Positions 61,522 through 62,310 of a stretch of 64,000 nt of DNA are shown here, piece after piece. The stretch lies in NCBI RefSeq assembly GCF_036507355.1, contig NZ_AP027877.1. One strand, given 5' to 3'. Origin of the DNA: Escherichia coli (GTDB lineage Bacteria > Pseudomonadota > Gammaproteobacteria > Enterobacterales > Enterobacteriaceae). The translations under genes and the position numbers were made by a program. Under the pieces are notes generated by a model. That model saw only the letters and a list, made by a program, of their open reading frames with translations, searched no databases and had not been told where the DNA came from. Numbering within the stretch: position 1 is the first letter of the stretch; the number at the start of each line of letters is the position of its first letter.

Positions 61522-62310
61522 TCATAATAATTGCGGCGGCGCAAAGCGACGGTTGTTTAAGACGGGCAGTTGCGCGCGCACCTGACGCACACGTTCGGGC
61601 GTCACTTCCGCCATAATGAGTGCAGGCATTTCTGACGCTGCCGCAATGGTGACGCCAAAGGGATCTATAATCCGGCTTTGCCCGATATTTTTGTTCCCGC
61701 ACTCCCCCGCCGCCACCATATAACAGGTGGTATCCAGCGCACGAGCGGCAAGCAACGTTGACCAGTGATGCTCTTTGAGCGGCCCGCGAACCCAGGCGGC
61801 AGGAAGTGCCAGGATTTCAGCTCCCTGTAATGCCTGTGCCAGCGCCAGCTCTGGAAAGCGTAAGTCATAACAGGTCATCAGACCGACCTTCATCCCTTCC
61901 ACCTCCAGTAACGGAGCGATTTCATTACCAGCATCAACACGGCGTGATTCCTGAATGGCAAATGCATCATAGAGATGCAGTTTGGCATAACGGGCGACAA
62001 TGTTTCCTGCCTGTAGCGCCACCAGCATATTCCATGCGCGCCCCGGCGTTGAAGGAACATGAATCGTCAGAATTGTCGTCATCATGTTACGTTTACTTTC
62101 TCGCCGTAAACGTCCGAGGAATTCGCCTTCCAGCAGCTGTGCTGATTTAACCGATAGATCTGCATCATGATCATCGCGTGCCAGCAATGCTTCCGGCAGG
62201 ACAAACAGCGATACGTCGTTTTCCGCCGCCTGCGCCATCAACGAGGCACAAATCTCAGCGTTCTTTTCCCACACAGATGTAACAGCAAACTGTCCTGCAG
62301 CAACCAGCAT
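61522..62310 (-). CDS. ybeM: Nitrilase-superfamily (CN-hydrolase) amidase YbeM, intact (262 aa from ATG 62310; ORF is open from GTG 62316)
   Basis: ORF 61522..62316; SD GGAGG 5 nt upstream of ATG 62310; CN-hydrolase catalytic Cys in [12 protein letters not shown]. Confidence 0.88.

Follow-up and report, generated by a model that had tools for sequence, protein, structure and literature searches.

Escherichia coli K-12, the reference laboratory strain, carries ybeM as a pseudogene. This raises the question of whether the copy found in the genome studied here, where two nearby genes (ybeF and pagP) are decaying, is a working gene, what it would encode, and whether its survival is unusual. An earlier note, made from the DNA alone, had described this copy as intact and as a gene that the laboratory strain lost. 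We analyzed the gene within the window, a stretch of 64,000 nucleotides of one E. coli contig (NZ_AP027877.1). From the sequence we consider it very likely (probability about 0.9) that ybeM is an ordinary, functional allele encoding a nitrilase of the Nit1 branch, annotated as a deaminated glutathione amidase. Standard annotation and the literature already cover this gene and the family it belongs to, as well as its likely activity and its pseudogene status in K-12. A mildly informative by-product of the analysis is that the K-12 frameshift also occurs in a natural clade and did not arise as a loss in the laboratory.

The ybeM reading frame is unbroken

The ybeM frame runs uninterrupted on the minus strand from an ATG at 62310 to a TGA stop at 61522-61524, which is counted in the coordinates of the coding sequence (Table 1). 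A mechanically called open reading frame opens two codons further upstream, at a GTG at 62316 that lies within or against the Shine-Dalgarno sequence. On identical DNA from strain EC1515, RefSeq chose the ATG start, giving a 789-bp coding sequence and leaving the GTG unused. The intact frame of 262 residues described in the earlier note, with its Shine-Dalgarno sequence 5 nt upstream of the ATG, is thus upheld, and the encoded protein matches both Pfam and NCBIfam models (see below). The motif quoted in that note as the context of the nitrilase catalytic cysteine is also kept; it corresponds to YbeM residues 143-152, which makes the cysteine residue 147, not 146.

Table 1. Features of the ybeM region and of the comparison alleles. 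Positions refer to the window unless another locus is named.
Feature	Position	Strand	Basis or remark
ybeM coding sequence, 262 aa plus stop	61522..62310	-	ORF list and sequence; Pfam; NCBIfam; identity to WP_001307668.1
Shine-Dalgarno AGGAGG	62316..62321	-	5-nt spacer to ybeM ATG; read from sequence
Glu40 codon of ybeM (catalytic)	62191..62193	-	aligned to Glu54 of NitFhit 1EMS; kept in 10/10 alleles
Lys110 codon of ybeM (catalytic)	61981..61983	-	aligned to Lys127 of 1EMS; kept in 10/10 alleles
Cys147 codon of ybeM (catalytic nucleophile)	61870..61872	-	aligned to Cys169 of 1EMS; kept in 10/10 alleles
Codon 67 of ybeM (CGT)	62110..62112	-	G at 62111 is the base missing in the K-12-type allele; pairwise alignment with b4581
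crcB (fluoride channel), divergent neighbor of ybeM	62403..62786	+	ORF; K-12 and EC1515 arranged alike
tatE, downstream neighbor of ybeM, same strand	61190..61393	-	128 bp past the ybeM stop; ORF and syntenic annotation
ybeF pseudogene	58962..59915	+	CAG to TAG at codon 6, 58977..58979; alignment with K-12 ybeF, ORF list
pagP remnant	63224..63714	-	gene nt 71 onward; alignment with K-12 pagP; blastn end 63714 = K-12 656627
IS1 end, adjoining pagP	63715..64000	-	terminal inverted repeat GGTAATGACTCCAACTTATTGATAGTG and InsB C-terminus; continues past the window end
K-12 ybeM	6032-6819 of locus L001		frameshift allele
Strain 26561 ybeM	2332-3119 of locus L003		frameshift allele
O166:H15 JNE21-003, independent ybeM lesion	2644-5561 of locus L006		ISEc62 insertion

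The 1,051 bp of the window that span ybeM are 100% identical to the corresponding region of EC1515, which carries an intact coding sequence (WP_001307668.1), and ybeM in four more independent assemblies has 0 nucleotide differences from the window. Protein and DNA of the EC1515 gene are identical to those of the window, and only the window neighbors differ (the nonsense mutation in ybeF and the IS1 insertion in pagP). The intact YbeM of BL21(DE3), O157:H7 86-24, and W (WP_000959109.1) is one residue from that of the window (A168V). At this position, five other distinct intact proteins that we compared and the repaired K-12 protein have Val; the change is conservative, homologues vary at this position, and Ala is found in EC1515 and many other genomes.

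The surroundings of the gene are likewise conserved, with the order and spacing of crcB-ybeM-tatE-lipA matching those of K-12, EC1515, BL21, O157, and W. The crcB-ybeM intergenic region measures 92 bp (62311-62402) and, in some phylogroups, 95 bp, a 3-bp indel. Matches of 1,054 bp to the ybeM region had made an in-frame codon insertion in ybeM a candidate, which was ruled out: the extra 3 bp are intergenic, and the coding sequence is still 789 bp. A fluoride riboswitch between crcB and ybeM, which might constrain the 5' end of ybeM, was rejected too, since none was found nearby at the Rfam gathering threshold. A crude consensus scan of the 92-bp region identified no sigma-70-like promoter for ybeM on the minus strand, and consensus scanning for a ybeM promoter or terminator gave no signal exceeding the shuffle expectation. 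The ybeM promoter may lie inside crcB. On the opposite strand, a sigma-70-like match for crcB at 62310-62337 (+) overlaps the ybeM start codon. An NsrR ChIP peak has been located ~345 bp inside ybeM in strain CFT073 (PMC5320621). Adjoining the region studied, cspE with its 5' leader (62792-63234, minus strand) looks ordinary and matches the Rfam cspA thermoregulator over its full length (127.6 bits).

The K-12 allele carries a single-base deletion in codon 67

The orthologous locus of K-12 MG1655 has flanks like those of ybeM in the window. There, the annotation treats ybeM (b4581; 658031..658818 in NC_000913.3) as a pseudogene, 788 bp in length, in agreement with the frameshifted K-12 copy mentioned in the earlier note. 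Global alignment of b4581 with the window gene, a check that the note had proposed, gave nine substitutions and one deletion (98.9% nucleotide identity). The deletion removes the G of codon 67 (window GGACGTTTAC, K-12 GGAC-TTTAC), and the K-12 frame meets a stop after 75 residues. Downstream, the restored frame could encode a fragment of at most 187 aa in which K110 and C147 are present and E40 is absent; the codon 67 deletion thus parts Glu40 from Lys110 and Cys147. K-12 also differs from the window protein by V33A, V37A, and A168V. With the G present at 62111 and a frame open over 789 bp, the window stands outside the K-12-type pseudogene allele class. The broken gene has found practical use: in MG1655, the "pseudo gene ybeM" is used as a neutral site for integration (PMC7242477).

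The same lesion is present in strain 26561, isolated from bovine mastitis in France, whose 788-bp ybeM is annotated as "frameshifted." The positions of V33A and V37A are the only differences between this allele and the K-12 pseudogene. Since V33A and V37A are absent from 26561, K-12 must have acquired both after the frameshift, that is, two replacement changes and zero silent ones. These changes fit relaxed constraint, as expected for a pseudogene, with the caveat that the numbers are small. There is no homopolymer at the deleted G of codon 67, so inheritance of the K-12-type frameshift from one event is more likely than recurrence.

Intact ybeM is the majority state in E. coli and is under purifying selection

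Of 5,426 complete E. coli genomes, 5,423 contain the 1,051-bp ybeM region, with the annotation "deaminated glutathione amidase" throughout. A 60-mer of the K-12 allele centered on the deletion had an exact match in 860 of the 5,423 genomes; for the corresponding 61-mer from the window, exact matches numbered 3,625, and most of the other genomes differed by substitutions. The K-12 lesion is thus absent from ~84% of these genomes, and the open frame of the window is no product of chance. Intact ybeM is the ancestral, majority state and is ordinary in E. coli, so that the emphasis of the earlier note on its being kept needs correcting.

A second 61-mer, specific for K-12 and covering V33A and V37A, matched exactly in 365 genomes, and all of the matches listed for it were K-12 laboratory derivatives. 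Set against the 860 frameshift carriers, this count leaves ~495 carriers outside the K-12-like group, which make up ~9-10% of all genomes outside it. Humans, chicken, dog, bovine mastitis, cucumber, and river water are among the sources of the exact K-12-type matches, and these isolates have genomes of 4.7-5.0 Mb. The K-12 ybeM deletion is a natural polymorphism in a clade of E. coli and not a laboratory accident. With regard to the claim that the laboratory strain lost the gene, the K-12 copy is indeed broken; the wording is nonetheless misleading, because ~495 genomes that are not K-12-like carry the same 1-bp deletion.

We saw a single independent lesion. In O166:H15 JNE21-003, the IS21-family element ISEc62 (istA/istB) is inserted near the 3' end of ybeM, and the 5' part of the gene is called by PGAP as a 241-aa protein. 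A public protein/contig collection has the exact 262-aa YbeM of the window in 1,937 of its blocks; among the matches listed, the protein is always located between intact pagP (186 aa) and intact ybeF (317 aa).

Selection on ybeM was assessed with ten distinct alleles, including those of the window/EC1515, BL21, O157, W, four more divergent strains, and K-12 with the missing G restored. Of the 41 segregating sites among them, 31 were synonymous and 10 nonsynonymous, and pairwise Nei-Gojobori dN/dS values ranged from 0.04 to 0.16. E40, K110, and C147 were kept in all ten. Based on these ratios and on the preserved triad, intact ybeM is held by purifying selection, yet the gene is dispensable enough to have been lost in one sizeable clade.

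YbeM is predicted to be a Nit1-type deaminated glutathione amidase

YbeM consists of a single CN_hydrolase domain (Pfam PF00795), which was matched over its whole length (E value of 2.6e-40; 138.8 bits against a gathering cut-off of 23.2 bits; YbeM residues 3-245, profile positions 2-255 of 256). The NCBIfam model for deaminated glutathione amidases (NF033621, de_GSH_amidase), which has a curated whole-protein cut-off of 355 bits, scored 449.6 bits (residues 3-261, profile positions 2-260 of 260). The YafV-type model PRK10438 reached 57 bits, versus a cut-off of 249, and the remaining nitrilase-superfamily models in NCBIfam fell far under their own cut-offs. Among solved structures, the best relatives of YbeM are Nit1-type proteins (NitFhit, PDB code 1EMS, 1.2e-29; yeast Nit2, 4H5U, 8.3e-27), and omega-amidases rank lower (mouse Nit2, 2W1V, 1.2e-21; yeast Nit3, 1F89, 1.8e-19).

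Alignment with NitFhit of Caenorhabditis elegans placed E40, K110, and C147 of YbeM in register with E54, K127, and C169, the Glu-Lys-Cys triad of 1EMS. The catalytic triad for which the earlier note had suggested a search is therefore present. YbeM shares its fold family and this triad with Nit1-type amidases (mammalian Nit1, yeast Nit2, and C. elegans NitFhit), to which its identity is modest. Unlike NitFhit, it is a stand-alone domain of 262 aa without the Fhit fusion, and, unlike yeast Nit2, it is free of the insertions of that protein. The superfamily and triad are also common to YafV, mammalian Nit2, and yeast Nit3, which are likewise regarded as metabolite-repair amidases (PMC8711792, PMC8788347); YafV is a paralogue separate from YbeM.

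The substrate and chemistry of YbeM are inferred from its family, and the gene is presumed to be expressed. Deaminated glutathione would arise when side reactions of transaminases turn the free amino group of glutathione into a keto group. Cys147 is predicted to attack the amide carbonyl of this compound, with release of cysteinylglycine, and hydrolysis of the resulting thioester intermediate would yield 2-oxoglutarate. Glu40 would act as the general base and Lys110 would stabilize the tetrahedral intermediate, while Glu121 is probably an auxiliary second Glu. E. coli YbeM itself was reportedly assayed by Peracchi et al. in 2017.

The published record is consistent with this assignment. According to two papers that cite Peracchi et al. 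2017 (PMC5714238, PMC9913352), Nit1 and its yeast orthologue hydrolyze deaminated glutathione, and YbeM has been equated with NIT1, the deaminated glutathione amidase (PMC8788347). In PMC8711792 (citing Peracchi 2017) and PMC8788347, the role of omega-amidase in E. coli, or equivalence to NIT2, is given to YafV. In uropathogenic E. coli (UPEC) CFT073, ybeM is transcribed, bound by NsrR, responsive to NO, and handled as a normal gene (PMC5320621), and ybeM has been cloned from UPEC UTI89 (PMC6206680).

Two neighbors of ybeM are inactivated

As the earlier note had stated, ybeF and pagP are decaying in this strain and ybeM is kept. In ybeF, the nonsense mutation at codon 6 is followed by the next potential start (ATG, GTG, or TTG) only at codon 52 (59115), inside the LysR helix-turn-helix, so that half of this motif would be missing from a protein begun there. 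No exact match to the TAG allele was present in any of the 5,426 complete E. coli genomes (best match, one mismatch), and the allele is therefore private to the lineage of the window.

The 5' end of pagP has been cut off by IS1, identified from the junction sequence, an InsB-like open reading frame (63730..63996), and hits annotated as IS1-family transposase. No more than 5 of the 5,426 genomes carry an IS1 anywhere in pagP, and most of these insertions lie elsewhere in the gene. A protein corresponding to the truncated PagP product of 156 aa was looked for and is not on record. With the signal peptide and start codon of pagP gone, palmitoylation of lipid A is presumably absent in this strain.

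Alternative readings of the intact frame

The neighborhood itself suggests that ybeM could be dead or dispensable here behind an open frame, owing to promoter silence or to an inactivating missense mutation, with decay merely pending. Two of the seven genes within ~3.5 kb (ybeF and pagP) are inactivated, so lesions are building up in this lineage; K-12 and ~495 wild genomes can dispense with ybeM, which is occasionally hit by an IS element; and the consensus scan yielded no promoter on its strand. We nevertheless consider this reading quite unlikely. Strains with intact neighbors carry exactly this DNA, which leaves zero lineage-specific change within the 1,051 bp, including the 5' region, and the intact triad and the low dN/dS indicate that selection has kept this class of alleles. 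Even less credit can be given to the idea, raised in the earlier note as a possible refutation, that an error of sequencing or assembly masks a frameshift. We found no points in its support, and the perfect identity to an independent complete genome (EC1515), the agreement of four further assemblies, and the position of the deletion outside a homopolymer, an atypical site for sequencing errors, make it extremely improbable.

The frame could also encode an active CN-hydrolase with another physiological substrate, such as 2-oxoglutaramate (as for an omega-amidase) or another small amide. The deaminated glutathione function of YbeM is assigned from homology and a curated HMM, sequence identity with eukaryotic Nit1-type proteins is modest, and specificities in the Nit family have been reassigned before, the substrate of Nit1 having long been missing (PMC9913352, PMC5714238). 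Against this, YbeM passes the de_GSH_amidase cut-off over its full length and falls well below that of the YafV-type model, Nit1-type structures outrank omega-amidases, and the omega-amidase of E. coli is YafV according to the papers cited above. We regard a different substrate as unlikely and favor a functional Nit1-branch amidase that acts on deaminated glutathione.

Implications for the study of ybeM

A broader account can be offered only tentatively, with the odds somewhat against it: the ybeM frameshift may have been one old natural event, followed by relaxed evolution in K-12, while a lineage in which ybeF and pagP are decaying keeps ybeM unchanged. If this were true, wild E. coli would provide a natural contrast between knockout and wild type for the fitness value of deaminated glutathione repair, and the survival of ybeM in a lineage whose genome is decaying, and which may be host-restricted, would be a hint that this repair matters there. 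As K-12 is unrepresentative for the YbeM repair enzyme, ybeM phenotypes are better studied in BL21, W, O157, and UPEC strains. Moreover, since the K-12 lesion is natural and not an artefact of domestication, comparisons among wild isolates could reveal the cost of losing deaminated glutathione repair.

The wider window compared with K-12

The window is collinear with the 655-727 kb region of K-12 at 98-98.6% identity, and the best complete E. coli genome is just 99.4% identical over the last 20 kb of the window. The window would thus come from a lineage that lies outside this set of genomes and has inactivations of its own; Shigella or another IS1-bearing lineage with a restricted host range is a reasonable guess. 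The K-12 element IS5D, located between gltI and lnt, is absent at 32486-32490, where the flanks join cleanly, fitting a K-12-specific insertion. Between kdpE and ybfP (~5446-5744), a K-12 block of ~5.1 kb (ybfG', ybfI', potE, speF, and speFL) is missing, with ~300 bp in its place; speF and potE encode the inducible ornithine decarboxylase and putrescine antiporter. Window positions 5305-5446 resemble both edges of this block (89% to the ybfI side), a pattern suggestive of deletion or insertion between repeats. The kdpE-ybfP junction, represented by an 801-bp probe, was covered over at least 80% of its length in 246 of 5,426 genomes; among the matches listed, only 2 were in one piece at 98% identity or higher. 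Elsewhere in the window, a seven-gene tRNA cluster (24403-25103, plus strand) aligns with metT-leuW-glnU-glnW-metU-glnV-glnX of K-12, and the small RNA gene sroC (33494-33656, plus strand) is as in K-12; both are ordinary.
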